Shown here in pieces: positions 1,632-57,558 of a stretch of DNA of 64,000 nt (positions are counted from its first letter, which is position 1; every line of letters starts with the position of its first letter). Made by a program: the position numbers and the translations under genes. The DNA is taken from sequence record OZ035790.1; one strand, given 5' to 3'. The stretch is from Felixounavirus LF110P4. The notes beneath the pieces are model-generated. The model was not told where the DNA came from and searched no databases. It saw nothing but the letters and a program-made list of their open reading frames with translations.

Positions 1632-1647
1632 TAGCTAGGTGAGAAGA

Positions 1648-3946: not shown

Positions 3947-3957
3947 GGTGAGTAAAA

Positions 3958-5304
3958 ATGAGTTCGAATATCTTCAGACTTGCTGATAGATTATTCAACC
4001 AACCTTTACTAGCCACTGAATCATTAGCTCACTCAGCAGCAACTTATGTGAATAACAGATTGCTGGGTGATGTCCAAGCAGCAGTAAACTTTGATAAACC
4101 CAAAGGTGAAGCAAGAAGTCTTTTAAAAGTAAAAGATGACATTGCTATTATTCCTATTATGGGTGGTTTAACCCATCGTATGACATTCATTGATGCAATG
4201 TGTACTGGTGGATTAAGCTCTTATGAAGGTTTGCGTAGAGGCTTTGACGAAGCTTTAGCAGATGAGTCAATCAAGACTATTGTTCTGCATATTGATTCCG
4301 GTGGTGGTGAAGCTTCAGGTTGCTTTGAATTAGCACGTCACATTATGGCTTCAAGAGGCCAAAAGAAAATTATTGCTTATGTAGATGAGTTCGCTTGTTC
4401 CGCTGCATACGCTCTTGCATCTTCTGCTGAAGAAATTATTGCATCACCAGATGCAGATGTTGGTTCTATTGGTGTAATTATGGTTCATCAGGAATTAACT
4501 AAGGCATTTGAAAAGAATGGCGTAACAATTAACGTCATCAAAGCTGGTGAGTTTAAAGGTATGGGTTCACCATTCCAAGCACTCTCAGAAGAAAGCAAAG
4601 AAAGACTTCAAAAGAGAATTAATGATACCTACGCAACCTTTACAGGTTTTGTAGCCGAATCTCGTAATCTCTCTGAAGAAGCTGTAAAGAATACTGAGGC
4701 GAATGTTTATTCTGCTCAGGAAGCTCTTGAACTTGGTTTAATTAACTCAATCATGTCTCAAGATGATTTCTTAAATTACTTACAAGGTTCTGAAGAGGCT
4801 CCTGTAAGTTTAAACGTTAACAATTCAGGTGAAGAAATGACTGAACAAGAAAAGCAAGAACTAGAAGCTTTGCGTCTTCAGGTTGCTCAAATGAAAGCTA
4901 AAGAACAGGAAGCTGCTTTGTCAGATTTGACTAATAAGATTTCTGCTTCTGCTGAAGCTTTTGGATTTGATGCAAAAGAAGCTGCAACGACTATTTTAGG
5001 TGCTGGTCTTGATAACCCTCTGAGTGTTCTATTTATGAATGCTATGGAAGGTGCTAACCAGAAACTTAATGAAACTATCGCGTCCCATGCTTCTGCAATG
5101 GAAGAAAAAGAATCAGAAATTACCAAGCTGAAAGAAACTGCTGGTGCTGTTCTTGAACATTCCAACGCTATGGAAGAAGTGGGTAATGACGGCGAAGCTG
5201 ATTTGGTTGAAGAAGAAAAAGAACCAGCTAAGAATGCTTCCGAAGACACCGCTGAACAACGCAAACTGGCTCTCCAGAATGCTCTAAAATCTCTTATCAA
5301 ATAA
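3958..5304 (+). CDS. prohead protease / scaffold fusion (S49 ClpP-like peptidase with C-terminal coiled-coil acidic scaffold domain)
   Basis: N-terminal half resembles S49/SppA-type serine peptidases (HIDSGGGEASG, VDEFACSAAYALAS); C-terminal ~170 aa is E/K/A-rich and coiled-coil-like; sits between portal and capsid. Confidence 0.7.
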   Translation: MSSNIFRLADRLFNQPLLATESLAHSAATYVNNRLLGDVQAAVNFDKPKGEARSLLKVKDDIAIIPIMGGLTHRMTFIDAMCTGGLSSYEGLRRGFDEALADESIKTIVLHIDSGGGEASGCFELARHIMASRGQKKIIAYVDEFACSAAYALASSAEEIIASPDADVGSIGVIMVHQELTKAFEKNGVTINVIKAGEFKGMGSPFQALSEESKERLQKRINDTYATFTGFVAESRNLSEEAVKNTEANVYSAQEALELGLINSIMSQDDFLNYLQGSEEAPVSLNVNNSGEEMTEQEKQELEALRLQVAQMKAKEQEAALSDLTNKISASAEAFGFDAKEAATTILGAGLDNPLSVLFMNAMEGANQKLNETIASHASAMEEKESEITKLKETAGAVLEHSNAMEEVGNDGEADLVEEEKEPAKNASEDTAEQRKLALQNALKSLIK

Positions 5305-5315
5305 GGAACACAATA

Positions 5316-5693
5316 ATGGCATATCAAGGTTTTACTAAGTTAGGTAACAGAGAACCTCTGAATGATATCATTCTTTGGGAACAGATTACCCCAACAGGCC
5401 ACTCTCGTAAAGAGTACACTCCAGTTGCTTCAACAGAATACCGTGTAGGTGAAGTTCTGAAAGCAGATGGTACTAAGGTACAAGCTGGAGAAGAAGCCCA
5501 AGCAGACTCTGTATGTATCGTTAATTTCTACGCAGACCTGCAACTGTCTTATCATGGTCAGTTGAAAGTGGTAGGTATCCACCGTGATGCAGAACTAAAA
5601 GACCTGCTGACTCTTGAATCAAGCGTTAATGCTGATGAAGTCAAGAAAGCTTTGGCTGCTAAAGGTATCGATTTCGTACCAACTGGCCTGTAA
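5316..5693 (+). CDS. putative head decoration protein
   Basis: 125 aa ORF between protease and major capsid gene (lambda C-D-E-like order); optimal-codon-rich. Confidence 0.4.
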   Translation: MAYQGFTKLGNREPLNDIILWEQITPTGHSRKEYTPVASTEYRVGEVLKADGTKVQAGEEAQADSVCIVNFYADLQLSYHGQLKVVGIHRDAELKDLLTLESSVNADEVKKALAAKGIDFVPTGL

Positions 5694-5726
5694 TAACAAT
5701 AATAAGACCTTCTGGAGAATTTTACA

Positions 5727-6833
5727 ATGTTGACTAATTCTGAAAAAAGCAGATTTTTCCTTGCTGACCTGACTGGTGAAGTCCAGTCTATCCCAAATAC
5801 TTATGGGTATATTTCCAACTTAGGTCTGTTCCGTTCAGCACCAATCACCCAAACGACTTTCCTTATGGACTTGACTGATTGGGATGTTAGCTTGCTTGAT
5901 GCGGTAGACCGTGATAGCCGTAAAGCAGAGACTAGCGCACCTGAGCGTGTTCGTCAAATTAGCTTCCCAATGATGTATTTCAAAGAAGTTGAAAGCATCA
6001 CTCCTGATGAGATTCAGGGTGTACGTCAGCCAGGCACTGCAAACGAACTGACTACTGAAGCTGTAGTACGTGCTAAGAAGCTGATGAAGATTCGTACCAA
6101 GTTCGATATTACTCGTGAGTTCCTGTTTATGCAAGCTCTGAAGGGTAAAGTTGTCGATGCTCGTGGTACTCTGTACGCTGACCTGTACAAGCAGTTCGAC
6201 GTTGAGAAGAAGACTGTTTACTTCGACCTTGACAATCCTAATGCTGACATCGATGCTTCTATCGAAGAACTGCGTATGCACATGGAAGACGAAGCTAAGA
6301 CTGGCACTGTAATCAACGGTGAAGAAATTCACGTAGTTGTTGACCGTGTATTCTTCAGCAAACTGGTTAAGCATCCTAAGATTCGTGACGCTTATCTTGC
6401 ACAGCAGACTCCACTGGCTTGGCAACAGATTACTGGTTCTCTGAGAACTGGTGGTACTGACGGCGTTCAGGCTCATATGAACACCTTCTACTACGGTGGT
6501 GTTAAGTTTGTCCAGTACAACGGTAAGTTCAAAGACAAGCGTGGTAAGGTTCACACTCTGGTGAGCATTGATAGTGTAGCAGCAACTGTTGGTGTTGGTC
6601 ATGCCTTCCCTAACGTATCTATGCTGGGTGAAGCTAACAACATCTTCGAAGTGGCATATGGCCCATGTCCTAAGATGGGTTATGCAAATACACTTGGTCA
6701 GGAACTGTACGTATTCGAATACGAAAAAGACCGTGACGAAGGTATTGACTTCGAAGCTCACTCTTACATGCTGCCATACTGCACTCGTCCTCAGTTGCTG
6801 GTAGATGTTCGCGCTGACGCTAAAGGTGGCTAA
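5727..6833 (+). CDS. major capsid protein
   Basis: 368 aa ORF after protease and decoration genes; strongly biased codon usage (CTG, CGT, GGT, AAC) suggests high expression; synteny. Confidence 0.7.
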   Translation: MLTNSEKSRFFLADLTGEVQSIPNTYGYISNLGLFRSAPITQTTFLMDLTDWDVSLLDAVDRDSRKAETSAPERVRQISFPMMYFKEVESITPDEIQGVRQPGTANELTTEAVVRAKKLMKIRTKFDITREFLFMQALKGKVVDARGTLYADLYKQFDVEKKTVYFDLDNPNADIDASIEELRMHMEDEAKTGTVINGEEIHVVVDRVFFSKLVKHPKIRDAYLAQQTPLAWQQITGSLRTGGTDGVQAHMNTFYYGGVKFVQYNGKFKDKRGKVHTLVSIDSVAATVGVGHAFPNVSMLGEANNIFEVAYGPCPKMGYANTLGQELYVFEYEKDRDEGIDFEAHSYMLPYCTRPQLLVDVRADAKGG

Positions 6834-44228: not shown

Positions 44229-46463
44229 ATGATTAAGACAATTAAAAAATCAAACGGTACAGTAGTAAGCTTTGACCCAGAAAGACTGAATAAATGGGCA
44301 TCATGGGCAGATAAGCGTGGAATTATCTGGTCAGAAGTCACTATGGAAGCTATGAAACGTGTCTATGAAGGTTGCACTACAAAAGAGATGCACCAAGCCA
44401 TGATTGATGTTTGTGTTGATAAACAAACTCAAGAGTACTCAGATATGGCTGGACGGCTACTTCTAGGAATTATCTACAAAGAAGCCTTTGGAGGCTTTAC
44501 TAAGGTTCCTACGCTGGTTACCTTCGTTAAAAATATGGAGAGAGCAGGACTTTGGGAGAAGATGGACTATTCTCAGGAAGAGCTTGAATACCTGCAAGGG
44601 TACATTGTGCACTCAAAAGATATCTCTTATGGTTATGCAGTCCTGAAACAGTTCAGAGACAAGTATGGTATCCGTGATATTAAAACTGGAAGACTTTTTG
44701 AGTCACCACAATTTATGTTTATGGGTATGGCTATGAAAGCCTTTGAGAAGCAACCAAAGCACCGTAGACTGCAAGATGTTATCAAGCTGTACACTTACCT
44801 ATCTGACCTGAAGATTAACGCTCCTACGCCCTATTTAAACGGTTTAAGAGCAACTAAATCGGGCTATGCGTCATGCTGTTTGATTAAGGCAAATGACACT
44901 GCTGAATCACTTGGTATTGCTGCAAAGGTTGCTTATGATATGACTACAAAGCAAGCTGGTATCGGTATGCTGATGGAGACTCGCACTATTGGTGATGGTA
45001 TCCGTCAAAACACTATCGAACACATGGGTAAACTGCCTTATTACAAGCTTGTACGTTCATCTGTAGAGGCAAACAAACAGAAGAGTCGTGGTGGTTCAGC
45101 TAATAACTTCTACACTGCTCTAGACCCGCAGATTGAAGATTTACTGCGTTTGAAGCACCCTACAACGGTTCCTTCTAAACGTATTAATGAGATGGACTAC
45201 TCATTCGGCACAAACGATTATTTCTGGCAGTGTGTTCAGTATGATACAGATTGGTTGCTATTCTCTTACAAAGATGCACCAAAACTCTATGACATGTTCT
45301 ACACAGCATCTGCTGATGAGTTTGCTATGGCAGTTGGTCACGCAGTACATTCAGGAGTTAAGCACAGACGAGTCAAGGCTCGTGAAATTGCTAAGCTGTT
45401 TATTCAACAGCGTTATGCTACAGGTCGTGTGTATCCATTCTTCACTAACAATGCAAACACACATACACCATTTAAAGAACCATTGAAGATGTCAAATCTT
45501 TGTATGGAAATTGTGTTGCCAGTGTATGGTTTTGAGAAAGAGACAGACCTTTACAGAGACGATGCTGTGAAAGAGGATGGTGAGGTGGCTCTTTGCTTCC
45601 TAGCTAGTTTGGTTGCAGGGAGAATTTCAGAAGATGAATACGCTGACGTTGCTTATTATGCTCTTGCAATGGTTGACTCCGTTATTGACCTTATGGATTA
45701 TCCGTATCCGTCGATGTGTAACCATGTTCAGAAGCGTCGTTCTGTTGGGATTGGCCTTACAAATGTGGCTCATTACCTTGCGAAGAACTACGTGAACTAC
45801 TCTTCACGAGCAGGTAAAACGAAACTTCATGAACTTGCAGAGATGCACTCTTACTATCTGCATGAAGCCTCGCTGAGACTTGCTAAAGAGCGTGGCGTTC
45901 CAGAGTACATGAAGTTCACTAAGTATCCTGAAGGCTGGGTTCCTCCAAAGACAGCTAACAAGAAGATTGATGAGAAGCATGATGCAAAACTGAGATATGA
46001 TTGGGATGACTTAGCACAACGTATCAAAGAAAACGGTGGCATCCGAAACTCTGTACTTGAGGCTTATATGCCTAATGAGAGTTCTTCACTGGCAACTAAT
46101 ACGACAAATGGCTTGTACCCAATTCGTGACTTTATTTTAACTAAAAAGTCTGCAACTGGTAACGTGCTGTTTATTGTTCCAGATTATGAAGAGTTGAAGT
46201 ATGTATATGAAATTGCTTGGGGTATTGACACCTTTGACCTGATTGATTGTTATGCAATTGTTCAAAAGTTCACTGGTCAAGCTATCTCTTCAGATTTCTA
46301 TGTTGACTACGCAAAAGCTAAGAAGGTATCATTGGCTCAAGCTTTGAAGTACATGATTTATGCCAACTCGGTAGGTATGAAAACCATGTACTACCTTAAC
46401 AGTCGCATTGGTGTAGGTAAATCTGCACTGCAAGATGCTTATTGCGAGGGCTGTGGTGTTTAG
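44229..46463 (+). CDS. nrdA: ribonucleoside-diphosphate reductase alpha subunit (class Ia)
   Basis: N-terminal ATP-cone; catalytic NLCMEIVLP; C-terminal cysteine pair CEGCG; 744 aa colinear. Confidence 0.9.
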   Translation: MIKTIKKSNGTVVSFDPERLNKWASWADKRGIIWSEVTMEAMKRVYEGCTTKEMHQAMIDVCVDKQTQEYSDMAGRLLLGIIYKEAFGGFTKVPTLVTFVKNMERAGLWEKMDYSQEELEYLQGYIVHSKDISYGYAVLKQFRDKYGIRDIKTGRLFESPQFMFMGMAMKAFEKQPKHRRLQDVIKLYTYLSDLKINAPTPYLNGLRATKSGYASCCLIKANDTAESLGIAAKVAYDMTTKQAGIGMLMETRTIGDGIRQNTIEHMGKLPYYKLVRSSVEANKQKSRGGSANNFYTALDPQIEDLLRLKHPTTVPSKRINEMDYSFGTNDYFWQCVQYDTDWLLFSYKDAPKLYDMFYTASADEFAMAVGHAVHSGVKHRRVKAREIAKLFIQQRYATGRVYPFFTNNANTHTPFKEPLKMSNLCMEIVLPVYGFEKETDLYRDDAVKEDGEVALCFLASLVAGRISEDEYADVAYYALAMVDSVIDLMDYPYPSMCNHVQKRRSVGIGLTNVAHYLAKNYVNYSSRAGKTKLHELAEMHSYYLHEASLRLAKERGVPEYMKFTKYPEGWVPPKTANKKIDEKHDAKLRYDWDDLAQRIKENGGIRNSVLEAYMPNESSSLATNTTNGLYPIRDFILTKKSATGNVLFIVPDYEELKYVYEIAWGIDTFDLIDCYAIVQKFTGQAISSDFYVDYAKAKKVSLAQALKYMIYANSVGMKTMYYLNSRIGVGKSALQDAYCEGCGV

Positions 46464-46518
46464 TTTTAACAACTATGAGGGTCGTAAAAGACCCTCTAAA
46501 AATAACTTTGGAGAGACC

Positions 46519-46776
46519 ATGAAAGATTTAATAGAAAAACATGAGCGACCAATATACTTGCTCTACAAACCCCGCAAAACATTGTACTATGTGAGCAGCA
46601 CAGGTATCATGATAAAGCAGAATGATGACTTATGGGTCACTGGAGCCTCTTACATCTCTACAGCAGATGGTAAAATCTACGCAAGACCTTATGAGATGTT
46701 TAACAAAGAGAATTGGGAAGTTTTAGACAGAAAACAAGCCTTAGAAATGATAAAGAAAGGAGAAATCACGCTATGA
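46519..46776 (+). CDS. small protein between nrdA and nrdB
   Basis: track ORF 46435..46776 trimmed to ATG 46519; stop overlaps nrdB ATG (ATGA). Confidence 0.4.
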   Translation: MKDLIEKHERPIYLLYKPRKTLYYVSSTGIMIKQNDDLWVTGASYISTADGKIYARPYEMFNKENWEVLDRKQALEMIKKGEITL

Positions 46777-47846
46777 TTAACCAGCACCCAATCTTTTTAG
46801 GTGGTGAGAGAAAAACTTTTGACTCACTCAATAAGCACTACCCAAAAATCTTTGAACTTTATAAACAACAAAAAGCACAAGACTGGTCAGAAGATGAGTT
46901 CCCTTTTGAACAATCACGTCTTGATTTTGAGAGTGTCCCAGCATCAATGTCAGGTGTAATGCTTGAGATTCTTAAGTGGCAATGGGAAGCAGACACTCAA
47001 GTTGCTAAGAGCTTGGCATTTGCCTTTGCACCTTTTATCTCTGATGACATTTATGCAACTGCAATTATGAAGCAGTCTGAGATTGAAAACCTACATGCTC
47101 TTACTTACTCAGAGATTGTAAGACAATGTATTAAAAACCCTGAAACAATCTTAGATGAGATTAACCAGAATGTTGCTGTGCAAGACCGATTAAAAACTGT
47201 GAATCGTGTTCTTGAAGAATTACTGGATGAAGGTATAAACTATCGTCTGAGTTATGTGCGTGACTCACTTCTGGACAAAGACCCTTTACACTTCCATAAA
47301 GTGATTCTGAAAGGTCTATTTGCAGTGACTGCACTGGAAGGAATATCTTTTATGGCATCCTTTGCATGTACTTTTGCACTTGATGCTCAAGATAAATTTC
47401 AAGGTATTGCTCAAGCTGTCCAGAAAATTATGCTTGACGAAATCCTTCACACTAAAATTGATATTGAAGTTTTAAAAGAAACTTTAAGAGATGATGAGTG
47501 GCAAAAAGCTTTCCAACAAATTCTTCCAGAGATTAAAGTAATCTTAGATGAAGTAGTTGAAAGTGAAGAGAAATGGTCGTATTATATCTTCTCCGAAGGA
47601 CGTGCTGTAGTTGGGTTAAATACAAAGCTTCTTCATGAGTGGGTTTACTATAATGCTGCCCCACTGTATGATATGTTTGGCATTCCCAGAGATTTTGTAG
47701 CTCCTAAAGAACCACCTTTGAAGTATATGATTAAGAAGATGGAAATTGATAAAGAGCAGAATGCTAATCAGGAGCAACAGAACGGTGCGTATTTATTGAA
47801 TACTGTTGTAGATGATTTGAATAGTGGATTTTTAGAGGTTCCTTAA
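46773..47846 (+). CDS. nrdB: ribonucleoside-diphosphate reductase beta subunit
   Basis: 357 aa after trimming to ATG 46773; ferritin-like helical protein between nrdA and a glutaredoxin-like gene. Confidence 0.8.
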   Translation: MINQHPIFLGGERKTFDSLNKHYPKIFELYKQQKAQDWSEDEFPFEQSRLDFESVPASMSGVMLEILKWQWEADTQVAKSLAFAFAPFISDDIYATAIMKQSEIENLHALTYSEIVRQCIKNPETILDEINQNVAVQDRLKTVNRVLEELLDEGINYRLSYVRDSLLDKDPLHFHKVILKGLFAVTALEGISFMASFACTFALDAQDKFQGIAQAVQKIMLDEILHTKIDIEVLKETLRDDEWQKAFQQILPEIKVILDEVVESEEKWSYYIFSEGRAVVGLNTKLLHEWVYYNAAPLYDMFGIPRDFVAPKEPPLKYMIKKMEIDKEQNANQEQQNGAYLLNTVVDDLNSGFLEVP

Positions 47847-48088
47847 TGACTTATGTAATTTACTCCAAAACTGGATGCCCTCAGTGTGAGACTGCAAAGA
47901 ATTTTGCGAAAGCTCGTGGTATTGACCATGTTGTGAGAATGTTAGGGCAGGATTATGAACTGCCAGACCTGATGGATATTGCACAGATGCCAGTTCGTCA
48001 GATGCCATTCATCATGAAAACTGACGGTCAAAACCTAAAACCTGTTGGGACGCTACAGAATTTTATGGCAGAGGTGAATAATGCTTAA
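47846..48088 (+). CDS. glutaredoxin/NrdH-like redoxin
   Basis: 80 aa with N-terminal CPQC active-site motif; adjacent to nrdB. Confidence 0.75.
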   Translation: MTYVIYSKTGCPQCETAKNFAKARGIDHVVRMLGQDYELPDLMDIAQMPVRQMPFIMKTDGQNLKPVGTLQNFMAEVNNA

Positions 48089-48287
48089 ACGCATTTGGGA
48101 AGGTTTGGTTGTTGATGCACCAGCTATTGTGATTGGTATGCTGATTGTTAACCTATTTACTGACTTTGAACAAGGTTCATTGTTTGGAGCCATGTTACTA
48201 TGGGTTATCTTCGAAATATTAGAGATACAGCTAGGCATCACTGAAAAACTAAGAAAACTCGTTTCAAAGTTTTCTAAAAAGATTTAA
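48081..48287 (+). CDS. small membrane protein
   Basis: 68 aa, two hydrophobic segments; gaggtga RBS. Confidence 0.4.
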   Translation: MLKRIWEGLVVDAPAIVIGMLIVNLFTDFEQGSLFGAMLLWVIFEILEIQLGITEKLRKLVSKFSKKI

Positions 48288-48292
48288 AATGA

Positions 48293-48318
48293 AAGGGTCT
48301 CTTCGGAGACCTTTTTAG
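48293..48318 (+). terminator. intrinsic terminator (UUCG tetraloop)
   Basis: gggtctc-ttcg-gagacc then TTTTT. Confidence 0.65.
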
Positions 48319-48335
48319 CATGTAAAGGGGCAATA

Positions 48336-50480
48336 ATGAACAAAGTACAGATTATTAAAAAGAATGGCTCACTTGAAGAACCTGATATCAAAAAAGTTTT
48401 AGCAGCAGTAACTAAGTCAGCTAACAGGGTTGGATATAAAGAACTCCCACCAGATGTTACCCAAGCTCTTGAGTCAGCATTTATGAGGATTCTGGTAAAG
48501 TCCACTAAACAGAATAATTTGCTAATTTCGGTAAATGATATTCACAGTATTGTTGAGGGTGCTTTGGCAGAAGTCAATCACGAAATCTATGAGTCTTACT
48601 CAACATATAGAAATTACCGTAAAGAAGTTGCTCAAAATTGGGATGAACTCTACCAGAAGACCAGAGATACACTCTTCTTAGGTGACAGAGAGAATGCTAA
48701 CTTTGACAGCAGTTTAATTTCTACAAAAGGTTCAATTATTCGTGGTTACCTGACTAAAGAAATCTTTAAGCAGTACCATTTAACACCAGAGGAACTTGAA
48801 GCCATTGAAAAAGGGTTTATCTATATCCACGATTTAAGAGACCTGATTTTTGGCGGCATTAACTGTTGCTTGTTTGACATTGGTAAAGTACTGAAAGGTG
48901 GCTTTGAGATGTCTGGCATCGAATACTGTGAACCGAAGTCTGTGCTGTCAGCCTTACAGGTTATTGGTGATGTAGTTCTTTCAGCAACTGCACAGCAATT
49001 TGGTGGATTTACTTTAGCAGAGATTGATAAGGTGCTTGTACCGTATGCTAAAAAGTCTCTACGCTACCATGCTGAGAAAGCAGCATCTTACGGTATTCCT
49101 AAAGAACATTACCACAATTATGTCATGGAGCAGCTACAGCTTGAATTAACTCAGGGTTTCCAGTCACTCGAAATGAAACTAAATACTGTACCTTGTAGCC
49201 GTGGTGATTTTGCATTTACAACTTTGACATTTGGATTACTTGACTCAGATATGTCTAATGAAGACAACCGACTGCAATACATGATTGCAAACACCATTCT
49301 TGATGTTCGCATGAATGGACAAGGTAAGAGTAAGAAGCCTGTTGTATTCCCTAAACTGGTTTATATTCATGACCAGAAGAGACACGATGAGAATATCTGT
49401 CAAGGCCAACTGTACAGTAAAGCTATAGAGTGTTGCTCTAAAGCGATGTATCCAGATTTCTTAAGTGTATCTGGTCATGGTGCTGTAGCAGAAGCTTTTG
49501 AGCGTTCTGGCAAGGTAATCTCGCCGATGGGTTGTAGAGCCTTCTTATCTCCATATCTTAACGAGGATGGGGAAGAGTTCTACGTTGGTCGTGCTAACAT
49601 TGGTGCTGTATCTTTGAACTTACCAATGATTTACCAGTATTCTAAAGAGAATGGTTTAGATTTCTGGAAAGAGCTTGATAAGTACCTAGAGATGATTCGC
49701 AACTTCCACAAGAAACGCTACGAAATGATTGCTAATATGCCAGCAAGTTCTAACCCTCTTGCGTTCACACAAGGTGGTCTGTACAAAGGAACTAAGAAAC
49801 CTACTGACAAGGTTGGTTGGGATATTGTGAAGTCCTTCACAGCTTCTTTTGGTGTTACTGCGCTTGATGAGTTGTCTGTTCTTGCTGAAGGTAAACGACT
49901 TCATGAAGTTGGAAGCTATAGTTTTGCATATGATGTTCTGGCATACATTAACATGAAAACCGAAGAGTTTAAAAATGAAGATGGCTTCTTATATGCCGTC
50001 TATGGTACTCCAGCAGAATCACTATGTGGGACTCAGCTAAAACAGTTCAGAGATATGTTTGGGGTTATCAAAGGTGTTTCCGATAAGGAATACTTTACAA
50101 ACAGTTTCCATATGAATGTTGTAGCAGACATCTCACCATTTGAGAAGCAGGACTTAGAAGAGCCATTCTTCCATATCTGTAGAGGCGGTAGAATCCAGTA
50201 TGTAAGAGTAGCTAACCCAGAAAACTTATCAGCACTTAAGAGCTGTATTACAAGAGGAATGTTGAAAGGTTTCTATCAGGGACTTAACTTTGACTTAGCA
50301 ATCTGTGAACATTGTGGTAACAGGCCAAAGGCTGATGTTGAAGAATGTGAAGTTTGTCACTCACATGATATCTCTGTGATTAACAGGGTGTGCGGGTACT
50401 TGTCATTCACAAAAATTAAAGGTCAGTCTCGAATGAATGACGCTAAGATGGCAGAAATTAAGGATAGGGTTTCTATGTAG
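48336..50480 (+). CDS. nrdD: anaerobic ribonucleoside-triphosphate reductase
   Basis: N-terminal ATP-cone; zinc ribbon CEHCGN...CEVC; glycyl-radical motif RVCGYLS near C-terminus; 714 aa colinear. Confidence 0.9.
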   Translation: MNKVQIIKKNGSLEEPDIKKVLAAVTKSANRVGYKELPPDVTQALESAFMRILVKSTKQNNLLISVNDIHSIVEGALAEVNHEIYESYSTYRNYRKEVAQNWDELYQKTRDTLFLGDRENANFDSSLISTKGSIIRGYLTKEIFKQYHLTPEELEAIEKGFIYIHDLRDLIFGGINCCLFDIGKVLKGGFEMSGIEYCEPKSVLSALQVIGDVVLSATAQQFGGFTLAEIDKVLVPYAKKSLRYHAEKAASYGIPKEHYHNYVMEQLQLELTQGFQSLEMKLNTVPCSRGDFAFTTLTFGLLDSDMSNEDNRLQYMIANTILDVRMNGQGKSKKPVVFPKLVYIHDQKRHDENICQGQLYSKAIECCSKAMYPDFLSVSGHGAVAEAFERSGKVISPMGCRAFLSPYLNEDGEEFYVGRANIGAVSLNLPMIYQYSKENGLDFWKELDKYLEMIRNFHKKRYEMIANMPASSNPLAFTQGGLYKGTKKPTDKVGWDIVKSFTASFGVTALDELSVLAEGKRLHEVGSYSFAYDVLAYINMKTEEFKNEDGFLYAVYGTPAESLCGTQLKQFRDMFGVIKGVSDKEYFTNSFHMNVVADISPFEKQDLEEPFFHICRGGRIQYVRVANPENLSALKSCITRGMLKGFYQGLNFDLAICEHCGNRPKADVEECEVCHSHDISVINRVCGYLSFTKIKGQSRMNDAKMAEIKDRVSM

Positions 50481-50487
50481 AATACAA

Positions 50488-51066
50488 ATGAATTACGAAC
50501 TAATATATAATGCAATTATTAAAAAGGCACATTCTGAAAGGGGTGTGCCTCTCACATACTACAAATGTCAAGGTAAGGGTTATGAAAGACACCATATCAT
50601 ACCAGTATGTCTAGGTGGCGATAAAATTAGTGGAGATAACATTGCTTTACTTACACCTAGAGAGCATTATATAGCTCATAAATTACTGGTTAAGATGTAT
50701 CCAAACAATCATAAGTTATGGTTTGCATGGAGCAGGTTAGCTCATGATGGCCTAGATAGGAAAATATCATCCAGAGACTATGAAAAGGTAAGGGCTTTAA
50801 ACTCGAAAGCTCTATCGATTGTGAATAAAGGTAGGGTTTTCACTGAAGAGCATCGAAGACGATTAGGAGAAGCTCAAATAGGTAATACAAAGTCAAAAGG
50901 TTGTAAAAGGTCTATGGAAACAAGGAAGAAGATGTCAGAAGCCGGAAAAAAGCCAAAGAAAAAGAAAACTTGCCCGCATTGTGGCATGACTGGTGGTGCT
51001 GGTAACATGACTCGATATCATTTTGACAATTGTAAGAAAAAAAAAATAACCTTATGTAAAACTTGA
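50488..51066 (+). CDS. HNH homing endonuclease with NUMOD-like repeats
   Basis: HNH motif RHHIIPVCLGGDKISGDNIALLTPREH; NUMOD3-like FTEEHRRRLGEAQIG and SMETRKKMSEAGKK; between nrdD and nrdG. Confidence 0.75.
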   Translation: MNYELIYNAIIKKAHSERGVPLTYYKCQGKGYERHHIIPVCLGGDKISGDNIALLTPREHYIAHKLLVKMYPNNHKLWFAWSRLAHDGLDRKISSRDYEKVRALNSKALSIVNKGRVFTEEHRRRLGEAQIGNTKSKGCKRSMETRKKMSEAGKKPKKKKTCPHCGMTGGAGNMTRYHFDNCKKKKITLCKT

Positions 51067-51121
51067 CAAGGTGGTGTGGGTCTTGATAGGCTTACATCAC
51101 CTTTTTATTTGGAGTTACATT

Positions 51122-51457
51122 ATGGACTTGTGGCTTTATGTAGCAGTTTGTGGGATTGTATGTCTGATAATCTTATTTATTCTTGGAATAATGCGATTTA
51201 GAGACATCATACAGTCAGATTTTTTGCCTGAGTTTGCCATGATGGTTGGAGTTATTGCACTTTGTGTCTTGGCGGTGTTCTATTCATACAAAACTGTGAT
51301 ATGGATGAAGTCAAACAATTGTGTAAAAACTCATCAACATCGTGAGGTTACTTATTTTGTGAGTGTACTTAGTGGGAACACCACTGTACTTGTCCCACAA
51401 ACTTCTGTAGAGTATCTTTACACATGTGATAATGGTAAAACTATATGGTGGAATTAA
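51122..51457 (+). CDS. small membrane protein
   Basis: two predicted TM helices; track ORF 51071 (GTG) trimmed to ATG 51122. Confidence 0.35.
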   Translation: MDLWLYVAVCGIVCLIILFILGIMRFRDIIQSDFLPEFAMMVGVIALCVLAVFYSYKTVIWMKSNNCVKTHQHREVTYFVSVLSGNTTVLVPQTSVEYLYTCDNGKTIWWN

Positions 51458-51459
51458 CA

Positions 51460-51660
51460 ATGGCAACACTCTTAAAGGTATTGACACCCACACTACACAT
51501 AGTAATCTTCTTCTTTGGGGTTAGTGTTATGGTATGGGGTTTTTCAGACCCACAATGGAGTTTCTCATATCATGGTCAGATGGATTTATGGTCATGCTTC
51601 AAACCATTTTTAGGGTTAGTCATAGCATTCAGTGCATTACCAACTAAGGTGAAATTATGA
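51460..51660 (+). CDS. small membrane protein
   Basis: hydrophobic segment HIVIFFFGVSVMVWGF. Confidence 0.35.
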   Translation: MATLLKVLTPTLHIVIFFFGVSVMVWGFSDPQWSFSYHGQMDLWSCFKPFLGLVIAFSALPTKVKL

Positions 51661-52052
51661 TTAAGTTGAGCCAAAAACAGTTAGAGTGGATTAAAGATTA
51701 TGCCTCAGAGTGTGGCTCTTGTGAAAAGAATCACGTAAGATACTCAACATTCCACACGGTCTTCACATTGTATATCGGCGACAATGTTCTAAGTGATTCT
51801 GTAGAAGATGGTGTAGCATTGCCTAATGAATTGCTTGACAAATTAGCTGTAGTCACTGGAACTTGGTCTGAAGAAGATGGTCACGAACTATCTGATGATG
51901 TTGTCTTCTACAGTCTTGAAAACATCATGAATCCAGAGTACATTATGCTAATGACTTGCGCACAAGATTGTGTACCATTACAAAACTTCATTAAAGAGCA
52001 CTGTGAAGAATTTATTACTAAACAGGTTCCTTGTCAGGTGGTGTTTGAATGA
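51657..52052 (+). CDS. hypothetical acidic protein
   Basis: 131 aa ORF. Confidence 0.35.
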   Translation: MIKLSQKQLEWIKDYASECGSCEKNHVRYSTFHTVFTLYIGDNVLSDSVEDGVALPNELLDKLAVVTGTWSEEDGHELSDDVVFYSLENIMNPEYIMLMTCAQDCVPLQNFIKEHCEEFITKQVPCQVVFE

Positions 52053-52348
52053 GTAAAACAATTCGAAGAAAAGGTTTAAAGAACGTTCATGGACTCTATG
52101 AGTGGAGAAATGAGGTACGTAACAGAGAAAATGCTTCAGATGTCTACTTCCATTCTGATATGATGTCCAGAAAAGGTGGCTCTTACGACTTCACAAGCCA
52201 GCCTTGTAGAGAGATTAAGAAGGCCACTAAACGTCTTACAAGAACACAAATAAGGCAGCTTTCTAAGACATCCTTCTTAGATGAAGATTTTGATATTGAT
52301 AGCAAGTCTCCAAAGAAATCCGCTAAGAACACTTATATGTATTGGTGA
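52049..52348 (+). CDS. hypothetical basic protein
   Basis: 99 aa ORF. Confidence 0.35.
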   Translation: MSKTIRRKGLKNVHGLYEWRNEVRNRENASDVYFHSDMMSRKGGSYDFTSQPCREIKKATKRLTRTQIRQLSKTSFLDEDFDIDSKSPKKSAKNTYMYW

Positions 52349-52357
52349 GGTAACTAG

Positions 52358-52843
52358 ATGAATTACATGGAGATTCGACCATTTGACACAGCTAATGGTG
52401 AAGGGGTTCGTGTAAGCCTCTTCGTAGCTGGTTGTAAGCATCACTGTGAAGGTTGCTTTAATAAGGAATCTTGGAAGTTTAATGCTGGTAAAGAGTTCAC
52501 TTATGCAAACCTTTATGGCATCATTAAGTTAATGGATGATAATGCCATCAGTGGGCTGTCAATACTTGGTGGAGAACCTCTGGATGATAGAAACATTCAA
52601 GAGGTTACCAACATATGCAAACGTATTAAAACCGTTTACCCAGAAAAATCTATCTGGCTCTGGACAGGTTTTCAGTTACATGAAAAAATTCACCTTGATG
52701 TGATGAAATATGTTGACGTGGTGATTGATGGTAAGTATGATTCATCTAAACCAACAGTTAAACCGTATCGTGGTTCAGATAACCAAAACCTCTGGAGAAA
52801 AGAGTACGGATGGCAAGGTGATTGTCAGTGGAGAGCAGAGTGA
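52358..52843 (+). CDS. nrdG: anaerobic ribonucleotide reductase activating enzyme (radical SAM)
   Basis: radical-SAM cluster motif CKHHCEGC near N-terminus; 161 aa; ggtgagg RBS. Confidence 0.85.
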   Translation: MNYMEIRPFDTANGEGVRVSLFVAGCKHHCEGCFNKESWKFNAGKEFTYANLYGIIKLMDDNAISGLSILGGEPLDDRNIQEVTNICKRIKTVYPEKSIWLWTGFQLHEKIHLDVMKYVDVVIDGKYDSSKPTVKPYRGSDNQNLWRKEYGWQGDCQWRAE

Positions 52844-52939
52844 TTATTCTGGCAAATGGACTAAGGTATAACTCCAATTGGTATCACTGAAGAAGAACTT
52901 CATAAGTTCTGTATTAAACTTTAATGAGAGAGACTAAAA

Positions 52940-53206
52940 ATGGGAATTTTAGGTAATATGAAAGCTGGATTCTTAAAGGCACTGGAAAAAGCAGCAGCAA
53001 TTGTTTCTATGACTGGAAAGCAGGTCGGTGTAGATGCTTCAGCGGTTGCACAGGTTCTTGCAAGCCAAATTGAACAGCAGCCTTACATCTACGTAGGACG
53101 TGGTAAAGGTGGTAAGAAACAAGCCCACCGCCAATCTGGTGCAGCAGCTATTAAACGAGCAGCTAAGAAAGCTCGTAACCGTAAACGTAACAAGAAGGTT
53201 AAATAA
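52940..53206 (+). CDS. hypothetical protein with basic C-terminal tail
   Basis: 88 aa ending KKARNRKRNKKVK. Confidence 0.35.
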   Translation: MGILGNMKAGFLKALEKAAAIVSMTGKQVGVDASAVAQVLASQIEQQPYIYVGRGKGGKKQAHRQSGAAAIKRAAKKARNRKRNKKVK

Positions 53207-53208
53207 CC

Positions 53209-53529
53209 ATGAGCAAAGTTTATAACACTCGTAAATTACAGATTTTCGTACTGTGCCAGTTTATGGCTAAAGAATGCAACTTCTACTATTGTGGTACAGG
53301 TTTTATTAGCGATGATGATGGCTCATACCTCCCATTCAAAGAAGCTGTAAAACTCTTTAATGAAGAGAAAAGCTCTAAGAAAGATATTGAAAAGGTTAAG
53401 CTAACCTACAGCAAGAAAGATAAGAAGATTATCTGCCTAGATAACTTTGTGAAAGTTACTGGAGAAGCAAAAGAGTTTATGGATGAGAGTGAGATTTCAT
53501 TCACAAGCATCTTGAAAGTAGCTCAGTAA
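53209..53529 (+). CDS. hypothetical protein
   Basis: 106 aa ORF. Confidence 0.35.
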   Translation: MSKVYNTRKLQIFVLCQFMAKECNFYYCGTGFISDDDGSYLPFKEAVKLFNEEKSSKKDIEKVKLTYSKKDKKIICLDNFVKVTGEAKEFMDESEISFTSILKVAQ

Positions 53530-53540
53530 ACAGATACTAT

Positions 53541-53573
53541 AAGGGGACTGTAAAGGTTCCCTTTTTATTTTGG
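53541..53573 (+). terminator. intrinsic terminator
   Basis: aagggga-loop-tccctt then TTTTTATTTT. Confidence 0.5.
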
Positions 53574-53580
53574 AGGTAAA

Positions 53581-54096
53581 ATGTATCTGTCAAACCTGAA
53601 ACGTTCGGTTGCAATGTCAGTTCTAAGACTCAGCTTTGATGAGCGTCAAGAGTTTATAGACTCCCACAAATATGACCCTTCAAATTCTAATCACATGGTT
53701 CTTTGGAATCGTGATAACTTCCGTGAAAGAGCACTTGTCCGTTATTACCCACACTACACAATAGATAACCTGTATGAATGGTGTGTTGTGAAGAACACCA
53801 TTGCAACACTGAACAATCTTTGCAGGTATACGGGTAAGCAAACATTTACATTAGGTCATCACAAACCTGTTACAAAAGGTGGTGAACATCACTGTGCAAA
53901 CTGGTTTATCCAAACTAAAGCTGATAACCAGAAGCAAGGAGATAGCCTCCTAAGTATCCCTAAGATGACCTATGAAGAGCAAGAGAAATATATCAAAAAT
54001 AATATGCCAGATGTGCTTGACAACAACTATACAGATTTGGCAATATCTCTCCTGTTGAAGTTCGAGACAGTTTATAGGGCAACTTATAATGGCTAA
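53581..54096 (+). CDS. hypothetical protein with HNH-like motif
   Basis: LGHHKPVTKGGEHHCANWFIQTKADNQKQG resembles an HNH nuclease core. Confidence 0.4.
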   Translation: MYLSNLKRSVAMSVLRLSFDERQEFIDSHKYDPSNSNHMVLWNRDNFRERALVRYYPHYTIDNLYEWCVVKNTIATLNNLCRYTGKQTFTLGHHKPVTKGGEHHCANWFIQTKADNQKQGDSLLSIPKMTYEEQEKYIKNNMPDVLDNNYTDLAISLLLKFETVYRATYNG

Positions 54097-54367
54097 AGAA
54101 AAGTGGGAGATTTTAACATTAGTCAGTGAAGGAGGTAATGGTTGTGAAATGTACATGATACGTGGTCATGTTCCAGAGCCAATTGCACTTGAGATGGTAA
54201 ACAACTTTACAGATGGTTCTTACAAAGACTTAGGCGAACCAACTGTCAAGCAACAATGGGTTAAACCTGTACCAGACAGCACAGGTAACTGTAGTGTACT
54301 TTATCACGTTGTAGACCCTGCAAAATGCAAATCTGCAATGGCAGTAACAAACGTAACTTTTGATTGA
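54089..54367 (+). CDS. hypothetical protein
   Basis: 92 aa ORF. Confidence 0.35.
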   Translation: MAKEKWEILTLVSEGGNGCEMYMIRGHVPEPIALEMVNNFTDGSYKDLGEPTVKQQWVKPVPDSTGNCSVLYHVVDPAKCKSAMAVTNVTFD

Positions 54368-54378
54368 GAGAGAAAACT

Positions 54379-55260
54379 ATGAAAACATCTATCCGTGTTA
54401 CAGTTCATTCACCAACTAAAGGAACTCATGAAGAAGAGTTTAACATCATCCAATTTCCTTCTGGTGAGATTGGTGGACACTTTTCGCCAGAGTTTGTTGA
54501 TTTCACTGCTTATGCAGCATCATCCATCAACAATGTGATTATGATTGTAAAAGGTTATGATAAGGACACTTTGTTTGCTGTGGCACTTGCTAAAGAAGCA
54601 ATTGATGATTTAATTCCTCATGATTATGCTTTAAAGACTGTCATCTTTTACTACTTACCAAATGCACGTTATGACCGTCACATGTTTAAAGGCGACGCAG
54701 CAGCTTTAAAGGTTTTTGCTAAACAGGTAAATGCAATGGGATTTGGTGCAGTCTGTGCAGTTGACCCTCACAGTTACGTTCCAGATAACCTGTTTAACTG
54801 CTTCCAGAGTATTCCTCAAAAGGAGATTGCAGTCCACTATGCAAATGACCCACTGGTTGATTACTTAGTAGCCCCAGATGCAGGTGCTGCTAAGAAGGTT
54901 GCAGAGACCGCTAAAGAGGTGGATAAACCATATATCACAATGTCTAAGGTGCGTAACCTTAAGACTGGTGAAATTACTGGTATGCGAATCCTTGATGATG
55001 TTGATTTGACAGATAAAACCGTCATGATTCTGGATGATATCTGTGATGGTGGTCGAACCTTCATAGAAGCAGCTAAGCATCTTCGTGAAGCAGGTGCAAA
55101 ACGTGTGGAACTCTATGTAACACATGGTATCTTCTCTAAAGATGTTGAAAACCTTCTTGACAATGGTATTGACCACATCTACACTACAAACTCTTTAGGG
55201 GAAGCTAAAGACCGTGGTTTAACACATTATGGTCAAGTTACTGTAGCAAATTTGGACTAG
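54379..55260 (+). CDS. prs: ribose-phosphate pyrophosphokinase-like protein (PRPP synthetase family; candidate NARP1 Adps)
   Basis: phosphoribosyltransferase PRPP-binding motif VMILDDICDGGRTF; ~294 aa; paired with NAMPT-like gene. Confidence 0.75.
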   Translation: MKTSIRVTVHSPTKGTHEEEFNIIQFPSGEIGGHFSPEFVDFTAYAASSINNVIMIVKGYDKDTLFAVALAKEAIDDLIPHDYALKTVIFYYLPNARYDRHMFKGDAAALKVFAKQVNAMGFGAVCAVDPHSYVPDNLFNCFQSIPQKEIAVHYANDPLVDYLVAPDAGAAKKVAETAKEVDKPYITMSKVRNLKTGEITGMRILDDVDLTDKTVMILDDICDGGRTFIEAAKHLREAGAKRVELYVTHGIFSKDVENLLDNGIDHIYTTNSLGEAKDRGLTHYGQVTVANLD

Positions 55261-55268
55261 GTAACAGT

Positions 55269-55760
55269 ATGAATAAGGGTTATTTTGAAAAATACCTAAT
55301 ATATGAACCAGATACAGGTTTATTAATTTGGAAAGTAACCCTTTGCAGTACCGCTATTGCTGGTAATGTGGCTGGCACAAGGTCTAAGAAGGGTTATATC
55401 CAAGTCCAGATAAATAAGAAGAGGTACTATGCACATAATATTGCATGGATTATGTCTGGGGGTGAGATACCAAGTGGATATGAGATAGACCACATAGACC
55501 TTGATAAAGCTAATAATAAGTTGGAGAACTTAAGACTTAGCACAAAGTCACAAAATCAGAGGAATAGGGGTATACACAAGAATAATAAGACTGGTGTGAA
55601 GGGTGTAAGTTTTTGTAAACAAACAGGTCTTTACAAAGCAAGAGTCATGCTTTACCATAAAGAATACTTTTGTGGAAGATTTAAAACAGTAGAAGAAGCA
55701 AAAGAAGCTGTAATTAAAAAGCGAATAGAACTTCATGGTGAGTTTGCAAGACATAACTAA
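55269..55760 (+). CDS. HNH homing endonuclease with AP2 domain
   Basis: YEPDTGLLIW, HNH_3-like EIDHIDLDKANNKLENLR, AP2-like GVKGVSFCKQTGLYKARV; inserted between prs-like and NAMPT-like genes. Confidence 0.75.
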   Translation: MNKGYFEKYLIYEPDTGLLIWKVTLCSTAIAGNVAGTRSKKGYIQVQINKKRYYAHNIAWIMSGGEIPSGYEIDHIDLDKANNKLENLRLSTKSQNQRNRGIHKNNKTGVKGVSFCKQTGLYKARVMLYHKEYFCGRFKTVEEAKEAVIKKRIELHGEFARHN

Positions 55761-55776: not shown

Positions 55777-57558
55777 ATGAGTAAGTCACTTTACGCAGTA
55801 CCAGCAGGTCTTAATGCAGATGCTTACAAGGCATCACATATATATCAGTATCCAGATGCTACACAGTATCTTATGTTGAACCTGACACCACGTAGTGACA
55901 AATGGTTTAACAGCCCCTTAGCAATTGACGGTGTAGTGGCTTTTGGTATTCAACGTTTTGTTAAAGACTACCTGATAGACCACTGGAATGCCACCTTCTT
56001 TGAACGTGACAAAAAAGAAGCAATTGACGAAATCTTAGAAGTCATGAACGGTGTTCTGGGTAAAGATGCTATTGGTCGAGAACATTGGGAAGCACTTCAC
56101 GACTTAGGTTATCTACCAGTTGAAGTATACGCTGTAGAAGAAGGTACAGTTGTTCCTATGCGTGTACCAATGATTGTCTTCCAGAATACTGTTTCAGGTT
56201 TCCATTGGGTAGCGGGGTATCTGGAAGATGCTTTCTCTGCTGAGATTTGGAAGGCTTGTACCATTGCAACTATTGCATTGCACTACAAACGTATCTGTAA
56301 GAAGTGGTCTGACCTTACTTGTGACAACGACTTGCATTTGCCTTATCAGTGCCATGATTTTGCTATGCGTGGTATGTCCGGCTTTACCGATGACGCATTT
56401 AACGCTGTAGGCCACTTAACCAGCTTTAAAGGAACTGATAGCTTCCCTGCTGTGTATACGGCTAAACGAATCTATGGACAGTCTTACCCAATATCTGATA
56501 TTGGTAGCTCTGTACCAGCCACTGAGCACTCTGTAATGTGTGCAAACATTGCTTGGGAAGGTGGTAATGAGTTGATTGAAGAAGAAAGACGCTTTAAAGG
56601 TGAGTTACAAACCTTCCGTCGTTTCTTAACAGAAACTTACCCAACTGGTATTGCAAGTATTGTTTCAGATACTTATAACTTCTGGAGAACTGTGTCAGAA
56701 ATCTTACCAGCACTCCGTAAAGAAATTATGGAACGTGATGGTAAACTGGTAATTCGCCCTGACTCTGGAGACCCTGTACATATTGTCACAGGTTATAAAG
56801 CAATCCACTTAGAGTGTGCTAAAAAGGCTTATTACGAGCACCTAAGCAAGCTTGAAGCCAGCGACACAATGTTGAATGCTGTTCTGAACATGAAGCTTGA
56901 AAACATCAACTATGGTATTGCTGGATGGCTACTGTCAGAAGGCTACGAAATGGTTGTTGACAGAGAAGACTTTGAAGTTGCTGATACAGTGCTGTTGAAA
57001 AACGCTTATATGGTTGGTTCTGCAAACGTTGTAACACGTCCTGTAGCGGAGATTGATGGAGCTATCAAGACACTGTATAACATCTTTGGGGGAACTATTA
57101 ACTCTAAAGGGTTTAAGGTACTGGATGAGCACATCGGCCTTATCTATGGTGACTCTATCACGCTGGAACGTGCAAACGAAATCCTGAAGCGTCTGTATGA
57201 AATGGGTTTTGCAAGCTCTAACGTAGTATTTGGTGTAGGCTCTTACACTTACCAGTACATGACTCGTGACACCTTTGCATTTGCTGTCAAAGCAACTCTT
57301 GCAAGCATTGGTGGTAAAGAGATTATGCTTGCAAAAGACCCTAAAACAGATAGTGGTGTTAAGAAATCTGCCTTTGGTGGTGTAGCACCTATGTGGGATG
57401 GTGAAAATCTGAAAGCTGTAGATGGCTATGGGTTCCAGAGCTTTGCAGATGCACTTGAACACCCAGCTTGTGCTTTACGTCTAGTCTTTAGTGACTCTGA
57501 GCAGTTCGGCTACACAACTCTTGGTGATATTCGAAATAATATTGACAAGCAGCTTTAA
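55777..57558 (+). CDS. nadV: nicotinamide phosphoribosyltransferase-like protein (NadV/NAMPT family; candidate NARP1 Namat)
   Basis: 593 aa; overall resemblance to NAMPT and genomic pairing with PRPP-synthetase-like gene. Confidence 0.7.
   Translation: MSKSLYAVPAGLNADAYKASHIYQYPDATQYLMLNLTPRSDKWFNSPLAIDGVVAFGIQRFVKDYLIDHWNATFFERDKKEAIDEILEVMNGVLGKDAIGREHWEALHDLGYLPVEVYAVEEGTVVPMRVPMIVFQNTVSGFHWVAGYLEDAFSAEIWKACTIATIALHYKRICKKWSDLTCDNDLHLPYQCHDFAMRGMSGFTDDAFNAVGHLTSFKGTDSFPAVYTAKRIYGQSYPISDIGSSVPATEHSVMCANIAWEGGNELIEEERRFKGELQTFRRFLTETYPTGIASIVSDTYNFWRTVSEILPALRKEIMERDGKLVIRPDSGDPVHIVTGYKAIHLECAKKAYYEHLSKLEASDTMLNAVLNMKLENINYGIAGWLLSEGYEMVVDREDFEVADTVLLKNAYMVGSANVVTRPVAEIDGAIKTLYNIFGGTINSKGFKVLDEHIGLIYGDSITLERANEILKRLYEMGFASSNVVFGVGSYTYQYMTRDTFAFAVKATLASIGGKEIMLAKDPKTDSGVKKSAFGGVAPMWDGENLKAVDGYGFQSFADALEHPACALRLVFSDSEQFGYTTLGDIRNNIDKQL

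Follow-up and report, generated by a model that had tools for sequence, protein, structure and literature searches.

The interval between the genes of the anaerobic ribonucleotide reductase (nrdD) and its activase (nrdG) was analysed in a 64,000-nucleotide stretch of Felixounavirus LF110P4 (FelixO1-like, subfamily Ounavirinae; sequence record OZ035790.1), henceforth the window, to which all coordinates refer unless a locus is named. This interval is probably built of two layers, namely a homing endonuclease gene (HEG) cassette (50481-51059), whose surroundings carry the classical footprint of homing in which the target lies nearby and the donor allele is immune, and four small resident genes (51104-52348), which are dispensable and are lost or swapped as cassettes rather than inserted; cleavage of the target is predicted from sequence comparison. 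The initial annotation of the window had drawn attention to about 1.9 kb of intervening sequence as a hotspot for selfish or accessory genes, and its open reading frames (ORFs) all lie where it placed them, the stop codon of nrdD and the start codon of nrdG being 1877 nt apart. The observation is correct and the phenomenon is ordinary: the arrangement is of the variable kind already known from phage T4, and the current understanding of homing is left unchanged. The features that carry the argument are given below.

48336-50480, plus strand: nrdD, class III (anaerobic) ribonucleotide reductase (Pfam NRDD 2.2e-114, ATP-cone, Gly_radical)
50399-50462, plus strand: A tract, the recoded nrdD 3' end linked to the HEG (20 fixed differences from the B allele)
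50481-51059, plus strand: homing endonuclease insert of 579 nt (junction alignments)
50488-51066, plus strand: free-standing, MobE-like coding sequence with HNH and NUMOD3, 192 aa (PHROG 655, NUMOD3, similarity to T4 MobE)
51037-51046, plus strand: A10 homopolymer shortly before the HEG ends (comparison with relatives)
51068-51112, plus strand: nrdD terminator (terminator scan, RNA fold, conservation across loci)

For the comparison of relatives, 31 loci from viral contigs, obtained with an NrdG query, were combined with four annotated phages and the window proteins were mapped onto them, the interval statistics covering 34 Ounavirinae loci. Moreover, 260 phage records match a 4.6-kb query that runs from nrdD to nrdG, the closest being Felixounavirus LF82P2 with 95.6% identity over 99% of the query. 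The HNH gene is found in 10 of the 34 loci and in 48 of the 260 records, which hold the insert at 93–100% identity, always at one constant site; the proposal that it is a selfish insertion is thereby sustained. Its presence or absence at this precise site is uncoupled from the phylogeny of the flanks, as the HEG-positive loci do not form a clade and the nearest neighbour by the body of nrdD is HEG-negative in eight cases out of eight. The window and the HEG-negative locus L006, for example, are 98% identical over 45532-50482 and 98.5% identical over 51481-52841, and what differs across the interval is essentially the A tract, the HEG and a cassette with the small membrane protein gene M1.

The footprint itself is found at the 3' end of nrdD. 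Upstream of position −150 in this gene, the HEG-positive and HEG-negative groups are alike (0.95 versus 0.95); over the last ~120 nt, identity amounts to 99.0–99.6% among the HEG-positive loci and drops to 81% and then to 70–74% when these are compared with typical HEG-negative loci. The A tract begins within the RVCGY glycyl-radical codons (50385-50399), at their last base, and differs from the alternative B allele by the replacement of GW with SF, E with Q, I with M and R with K, together with many synonymous changes, 20 differences being fixed within 64 nt. The B state is common to the HEG-negative genomes of all sampled Ounavirinae lineages and is therefore regarded as ancestral. The HEG and the A tract are joined in all 48 HEG-positive records of the 260, and a HEG beside a B tract is never seen among them, in counts that take the records as independent with shared ancestry uncorrected, and that assume a B-type tract in the other ~167 records because the A-tract query had no high-identity match there.

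A second Ounavirinae lineage repeats this pattern. The contig L024 carries a HEG that is 74% identical at the protein level, and its nrdD shows the same SF, Q and K codon changes relative to its own HEG-negative sisters while keeping the sisters' synonymous states elsewhere. In the B allele, a 7-bp inverted repeat (ATCTTGG...CTAAGAT; L005:4866-4884) extends across the Gly-Trp codons and is destroyed in the A allele; this repeat may be relevant to recognition by the endonuclease. Recognition by the endonuclease, and immunity to it, are predicted to reside in the A tract. During mixed infection, the enzyme would nick or cut the B allele of a HEG-less nrdD, at a position placed by the comparison just 3' of the RVCGY codons, and repair off the HEG-positive genome would copy the HEG along with the adjoining recoded 64-nt A tract, which would leave the carrier immune.

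The boundaries of the insert are equally sharp. In all HEG-negative loci, the sequence aacTTGACA and a hairpin with a T-run stand directly 3' of the nrdD stop codon, and in HEG-positive loci 575–579 nt are placed exactly between this stop and this element, as seen in junction alignments. The terminator is thus kept directly 3' of nrdD in all HEG-negative Ounavirinae and 3' of the HEG in the HEG-positive genomes; the whole element, TTGACA (51063-51068) included, lies at 51063-51112 in the window. The terminator has 16 bp in its stem and 4 nt in its loop, ends in a T-rich tail and folds at −27.7 kcal/mol (z −5.1), and its hairpin sequence is absent from the FelixO1 terminator table of Whichard et al. 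2010. The end of the insert, ttatgTAA, echoes the end of nrdD, ctatgTAA, and no terminal repeats around the cassette were found beyond this echo of 6–7 nt. The stop codon of nrdD is TAG in the window (50478-50480) and in eight of the ten HEG-positive loci, and TAA or TGA in every HEG-negative locus.

The placement of the cassette also bears on its expression. A promoter of its own was considered and rejected, since no sigma-70-like site occurs on the plus strand in the nrdD 3' end; as for the TTGACA at 51063, its −10 candidate matches at only three of six positions, and the element is met once in the window, which is not above chance. Since the cassette lies between the nrdD stop and the terminator, it would be co-transcribed with nrdD, as a promoter-less passenger of the 3' untranslated region carried on a 3' extension of the nrdD message. 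The HEG start codon is located 7 nt 3' of the nrdD stop with no Shine-Dalgarno motif visible upstream, for which reason translation would probably proceed at a low level through termination and reinitiation; a Shine-Dalgarno motif can be read at each of the four small genes and at nrdG. Near its end, the HEG of the window has a run of ten A (51037-51046), in place of the A6 followed by TAA in most relatives (185 aa), which shifts the frame, adds seven residues (KITLCKT) and ends at a TGA inside TTGACA to give 192 aa. The closest records differ by 2 nt in the length of the insert alignment (579 versus 581), and the run may reflect slippage or a sequencing error.

The protein is assigned to its family by several independent matches. 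PHROG 655 ('homing endonuclease') is matched over residues 1-185 (E = 1.2e-56) and Pfam NUMOD3 (PF07460) over residues 115-150 (28.0 bits against a cut-off of 20.4); the NUMOD3-like repeats of the initial annotation hold insofar as the domain is present, in Pfam terms as one stretch with no clear repeat array. A Pfam Col-Pyo_DNase match is weak (E = 0.0042) and below the cut-off. The catalytic motif ERHHIIPVCLGGDKISGDNIALLTPREHYIAH aligns to the HNH of the pyocin AP41 and colicin E9 DNases (E = 0.004–0.01), and also to the HHIIP...DN...H residues of T4 MobC and MobE. Identity to T4 MobE reaches 35% over 133 aa (E = 5e-22), and identity to T4 NrdB.1, the C-terminal part of MobE, 30% over 73 aa (E = 4e-10), including a CPHCG...YHFDNCK motif. 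Similarity to T4 MobC is confined to residues 1-103 (35% identity; phmmer 38.7 bits, N-terminal), the rest having no significant alignment, and MobC is therefore a positional analogue; an orthologue was rejected. A tblastn search gave 96% query coverage in 'homing endonuclease' genes of T-even and Klebsiella phages, and the label 'MobE-like HNH homing endonuclease' is already given to the gene in several GenBank records. An Rfam scan of 47500-54000 (E ≤ 1) gave no match, hence no group I intron model, so that the gene is taken as free-standing; an intron-encoded homing endonuclease was rejected on this ground and because nrdD is uninterrupted in the window. By its sequence relationships, the HNH gene is classed as a free-standing HEG of the MobE family. 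Intact copies have a ratio of nonsynonymous to synonymous divergence (dN/dS) of 0.04–0.26, with dS up to 0.30, which points to purifying selection, and the frameshifted copies in phages warpig and VpaE1 show the expected decay phase.

Introns do occur in the nrdD of other members of the group. In many relatives, the gene is split at about codon 400, either by a 305-nt insert devoid of ORFs or by an insert of ~730 nt with an HNH_3 ORF (L030:3408-3705 and L004:2737-3556, respectively). The shorter insert was identified as a group I intron (RF00028, 55.1 bits in L030), which the nrdD of the window does not contain. The endonuclease carried by the intron of relatives, of the HNH_3 type, is a different one from that of the HEG. 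A split nrdD has been reported for phages UAB_Phi87, HB-2014 and JH2 (PMC4837284).

The second layer of the interval is formed by the four small genes that precede nrdG. The gene order of the region is nrdB, a glutaredoxin gene, a 68-aa membrane ORF, nrdD, the HNH/NUMOD3 ORF, M1, M2, P131, P99 and nrdG, with the following features downstream of the terminator.

51122-51457, plus strand: M1, membrane protein of 111 aa (hydropathy; PHROG 8826, 6e-37)
51460-51660, plus strand: M2, membrane protein of 66 aa (hydropathy; PHROG 11929 'membrane protein', 2e-44)
51657-52052, plus strand: P131, acidic soluble alpha+beta protein of 131 aa (isoelectric point 4.4; structure model)
52049-52348, plus strand: P99, basic protein of 99 aa (isoelectric point 10.0; PHROG 1774)
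52358-52843, plus strand: nrdG, radical-SAM activase of NrdD (Fer4_12 1.8e-43, Radical_SAM; phmmer against T4 NrdG 6e-49)

Hydropathy and isoelectric points agree with the earlier description of two small membrane proteins, one acidic and one basic protein. Strict conservation of the interval across relatives, named at the outset as the outcome that would speak against a hotspot, is clearly not found: the distance between nrdD and nrdG ranges from 550 to 1877 nt, the window being the longest, and 15 ORF layouts were distinguished by ORF clustering with the HEG state left out. The interval of phage heid, for instance, measures 1298 nt against 1877 nt in the window. P131 is present in 33 of the 34 loci, M2 in 26, a 41-aa protein with one transmembrane (TM) segment in 25, P99 in 15, the HNH gene in 10 and M1 in 9; all five interval genes occur together only in the window and in phage warpig, where the HNH gene is the frameshifted one. 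Two assumptions of the initial annotation do not survive this comparison, however. The genes nrdD and nrdG, which it took to be otherwise adjacent, are never so in the Ounavirinae loci compared, and the four small ORFs do not behave as insertions; since P131 is nearly universal, P99 leaves remnants and the M1 cassette alternates with another, their variation is ascribed to the loss and replacement of resident genes.

In terms of mechanism, this variation would arise by cassette replacement in the case of M1 and the 41-aa protein, and by microhomology-mediated deletion in the case of P99 or, in one phage, of all four genes. M1, together with the first ~15 codons of M2, forms a 400-nt cassette (about 51104-51505) that alternates with a 155-nt cassette coding for the 41-aa protein, which is commoner in relatives. 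Genomes that lack P99 keep its first 15–40 nt and its last 9–15 nt in two deletion forms, a pattern that points to two independent internal deletions and to loss on at least two occasions. The contig L032 (84,419 bp) has lost M1, M2, P131 and P99 altogether and retains the HEG, nrdD and nrdG (L032:5361-6001), the deletion joining the T-run of the terminator to the end of P99 at an ATTGG microhomology. The small genes are packed with overlapping stops and starts 3' of the terminator, the start of P131 overlapping the stop of M2, and are followed tightly by nrdG with its good Shine-Dalgarno sequence, GGTGAGG.

M1 has two hydrophobic segments and a soluble tail of ~50 aa, with a conserved C-terminal domain that contains Cys. 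A GTG start (51071) would fall within the terminator hairpin, while the ATG at 51122 has GGAG 8 nt upstream, so that the latter, as originally annotated, is the better start. M2 has one clear transmembrane segment and a weaker second one. A role of M1 and M2 as host-takeover or superinfection-exclusion factors (morons), with their allelic turnover resulting from an arms race, is unlikely, yet it fares best among the alternatives: the predicted transmembrane segments and the exchange of M1 for the 41-aa protein at one site are in its favour, as is PHROG, in which 'moron, auxiliary metabolic gene and host takeover' is the category given both to M2 and to the 41-aa protein. This category, however, is an annotation label with no homologue of tested function behind it; moreover, PADLOC and NCBIfam gave no matches for any of the five interval proteins, and Pfam, which assigns no function to the four small proteins, gave none for M1 and M2.

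Of the two soluble proteins, P131 lies just upstream of nrdG in 33 of the 34 loci, in several Ounavirinae lineages, and no relatives outside the Ounavirinae were found in homologue searches. A model based on an alignment of 25 sequences has an alpha+beta fold with a mean predicted local distance difference test (pLDDT) score of 91.4, against 40 for a single-sequence AlphaFold model, and its matches in BFVD are uncharacterised phage proteins only; the modelled fold is thus predicted with confidence and has no solved homologue. The cysteines of P131 are not conserved. P99 appears to be a distant relative of T4 gp55.5, to judge from their common membership in PHROG 1774 (2.5e-28 and 4.7e-48, respectively) and a full-length BLASTP identity of 28% (E = 2e-7). 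Against Pfam DUF5499, P99 scores 21.8 bits with a cut-off of 27, and sub-threshold DUF5499 matches are seen in three of seven remote P99 homologues; the family is tiny, with 9 clusters among 1.8 billion representatives.

Returning to the HEG, several points weigh against the interpretation of the A tract as a homing footprint. The A tract is present without the HEG in ~45 of the 260 records, which show a clean junction with the terminator, and for this reason it could predate the HEG, as a polymorphism at which the HEG inserted by chance, rather than result from co-conversion. The linkage counts are, as stated, uncorrected for ancestry. The three codon clusters linked to the HEG span ~57 bp, which is long for one recognition site, and the boundary of the divergent tract is identical in all genomes, while co-conversion tracts normally differ in length. 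Diversity is about tenfold lower in the A tract than in the adjoining HEG, which simple co-inheritance does not explain, and cleavage and biased inheritance are, for the window enzyme, predictions. Finally, T4 MobC, the occupant of the same slot in T4, is without demonstrated activity (PMC2988022).

Some of these points lend themselves to a different explanation, in which the HNH gene no longer homes, whether as a nuclease that is resident or has been domesticated or as an inert relic, and the A/B dimorphism has nothing to do with cleavage, being either a linked polymorphism of old standing or a patch that recombination brought in. The ~45 A-tract records have no HEG remnant at their clean terminator junctions, the HEG alleles differ by dS up to 0.30 and the gene is consequently old in the genus, and MobC has never been shown to be active. 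This explanation is nonetheless improbable, as it leaves aside the strong purifying selection on the HEG, its patchy distribution irrespective of flanking phylogeny and the one-way nature of its linkage, with 48 of 48 HEGs beside an A tract and none beside a B tract. Furthermore, the same three codon clusters are changed in the second Ounavirinae lineage with its 74%-identical HEG, and the divergent tract adjoins the most conserved catalytic motif of NrdD, a location typical of homing targets. Homing into the B allele, with the A tract as the immune state, is consequently the preferred interpretation.

The low diversity of the A tract deserves separate consideration. Among HEG-positive genomes, identity over 50381-50480 is 99.5%, with 94–97% in both flanks; the A tract has about one variable column per 50 nt against 4–16 per 50 nt in the flanks, and in the same genomes the adjoining HEG has diverged to dS 0.25–0.30. 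An identity to the window of at least 99% is reached by 71 of the 92 A-type records (over 110 nt) and by only 5 of the 48 HEG copies. RNA structure in the A tract and the HEG start was rejected as a cause, the fold being no better than that of shuffled sequences (z +0.71), and no promoter that might explain the conservation was found in the nrdD 3' end. Import of the A tract from a foreign, distant nrdD was likewise rejected, since the A and B alleles are equally distant (66% and 65% identity, respectively) from the nrdD of an unrelated viral contig, L034. The remaining candidates are a constraint at the nucleotide level, due to immunity or an operator, and a recent sweep of one haplotype. As a speculative and rather improbable extension, the near-invariant ~100-nt end of nrdD in HEG-positive genomes may be a functional part of the mobile cassette at the nucleotide level, for instance an immunity site that doubles as an operator or as a signal for reinitiation to which the endonuclease binds; the mobile unit would then comprise the HEG and, in recoded form, the end of its target gene that codes for the glycyl-radical C-terminus. 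Equally speculative, and separate from this, is the possibility that P131 is a phage-specific partner of NrdG.

Least likely of all is that the small genes, and P131 in particular, encode partners of the anaerobic reductase that are co-expressed with nrdG and help to activate, reduce or localise NrdD. In favour of this are the position of P131 directly 5' of nrdG, which 33 of the 34 loci from several lineages have in common, the overlapping stops and starts of five genes behind a single terminator and the proximity of the P99 relative gp55.5 to nrdG and nrdH in T4; against it stand the loss of all four genes from L032 with nrdD and nrdG retained, the deletion of P99 at least twice, the unconserved cysteines of P131, and the fact that T4 and bacteria manage without these proteins.

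Further variability was observed downstream of nrdG. The segment 52842-53086, just 3' of this gene, fails to align with the near-identical locus L006 and is for that reason regarded as another replaced patch; some relatives have an annotated ORF overlapping the end of nrdG at the equivalent position. The 171-aa protein encoded at 53581-54096 belongs to PHROG 3500 and has a weak HNH-like match to PHROG 2214 (2.3e-6) with the motif GHHKPVTKGGEHH...N; it is not considered a mobile copy because it is present in all relatives examined. A second free-standing HNH gene at 55269-55760 (163 aa; Pfam HNH_3 5.5e-19 and a weak AP2 match) is located between a ribose-phosphate pyrophosphokinase gene (54364-55260) and a NAMPT/NAPRTase-like gene (55777-57558); the loci L005, L006 and L009, collinear in other respects, lack it.

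Felixounaviruses are applied in the biocontrol of Salmonella, and for their annotation and engineering it is of use that one selfish gene can be told apart from four dispensable resident genes. At the same time, the comparison yields a sharp prediction of the target, namely the three codon clusters immediately 3' of the glycyl-radical motif, and near-isogenic phages with and without the HEG exist in nature. Papers on Felixounaviruses report variable numbers of homing endonucleases, and in the literature searched neither the nrdD 3' tract nor homing at this site was found described, nor were enzyme assays or phage crosses with this gene. The Ounavirinae would represent a second phage lineage in which the slot between nrdD and nrdG has been colonised independently, by a MobE-type gene where T4 has mobC, which further supports the view that homing preferentially targets ribonucleotide reductase genes.

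Among known systems, T4 MobE is the closest in architecture, being a free-standing HNH homing endonuclease encoded between nrdA and nrdB that nicks the nrdB of phage T2 and thereby brings about co-conversion, a precedent for the combination of nicking and co-conversion (Wilson & Edgell 2009, PMC2790892). Like the window HEG, it combines an N-terminal HNH, a NUMOD3-type linker and a C-terminal CxxC...HxDxC, and the resemblance extends over the whole length. Both genes are free-standing, start at or a few nt from the stop of the nrd gene upstream, lack a good ribosome-binding site, and adjoin a ribonucleotide reductase gene that is the demonstrated target of MobE and the predicted target of the window enzyme; co-conversion of flanking sequence is common to both, that in the window being deduced from sequence comparison. 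They differ in that the window HEG stands 3' of nrdD, of a class III reductase, rather than between nrdA and nrdB, and in that its predicted target precedes the HEG, in the 3' end of nrdD, whereas MobE nicks the 5' end of the downstream nrdB.

T4 mobC, in contrast, is closest in position. It is a free-standing gene at nrdG/nrdD whose activity was not determined and whose target is unknown, and it belongs to a set of seven T4 cassettes that have no promoter and make use of upstream ones; nrdD and nrdG serve as targets for seg and mob endonucleases alike (Edgell, Gibb & Belfort 2010, PMC2988022). It occupies the same slot as the window HEG, directly after the nrdD stop, with which its ATG overlaps, and before nrdG; unlike in the window, neither small genes nor a terminator separate this gene from nrdG in T4. 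The two proteins are of the same HNH class, both beginning with MNY(E/D) and sharing 35% identity over the N-terminal 103 aa, whereas their C-terminal DNA-binding halves are unrelated. A relative of P99 is found nearby, as T4 gp55.5, the founding member of DUF5499, is likewise basic, of similar size (about 97–99 aa for the two proteins) and encoded near nrdG, the P99 gene lying upstream of nrdG and that of gp55.5 ~1 kb downstream of it.

In T4-related phages, mobC is replaced by SegH (Sandegren, Nord & Sjoberg 2005, as cited in PMC2988022), a case which, as far as it is related in that citing paper, illustrates the repeated invasion of the nrdD/nrdG gap by different homing endonucleases; SegH is a GIY-YIG enzyme, whereas the window HEG encodes an HNH enzyme. 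The unrelated 154-kb contig L034 is in line with such repeated invasion: its nrdD and nrdG are 4.4 kb apart (1606-6001), a homing endonuclease of 547 aa (PHROG 3339, Pfam DUF7487) follows 50 nt after nrdD, and a DUF285 protein and four more ORFs intervene before nrdG.

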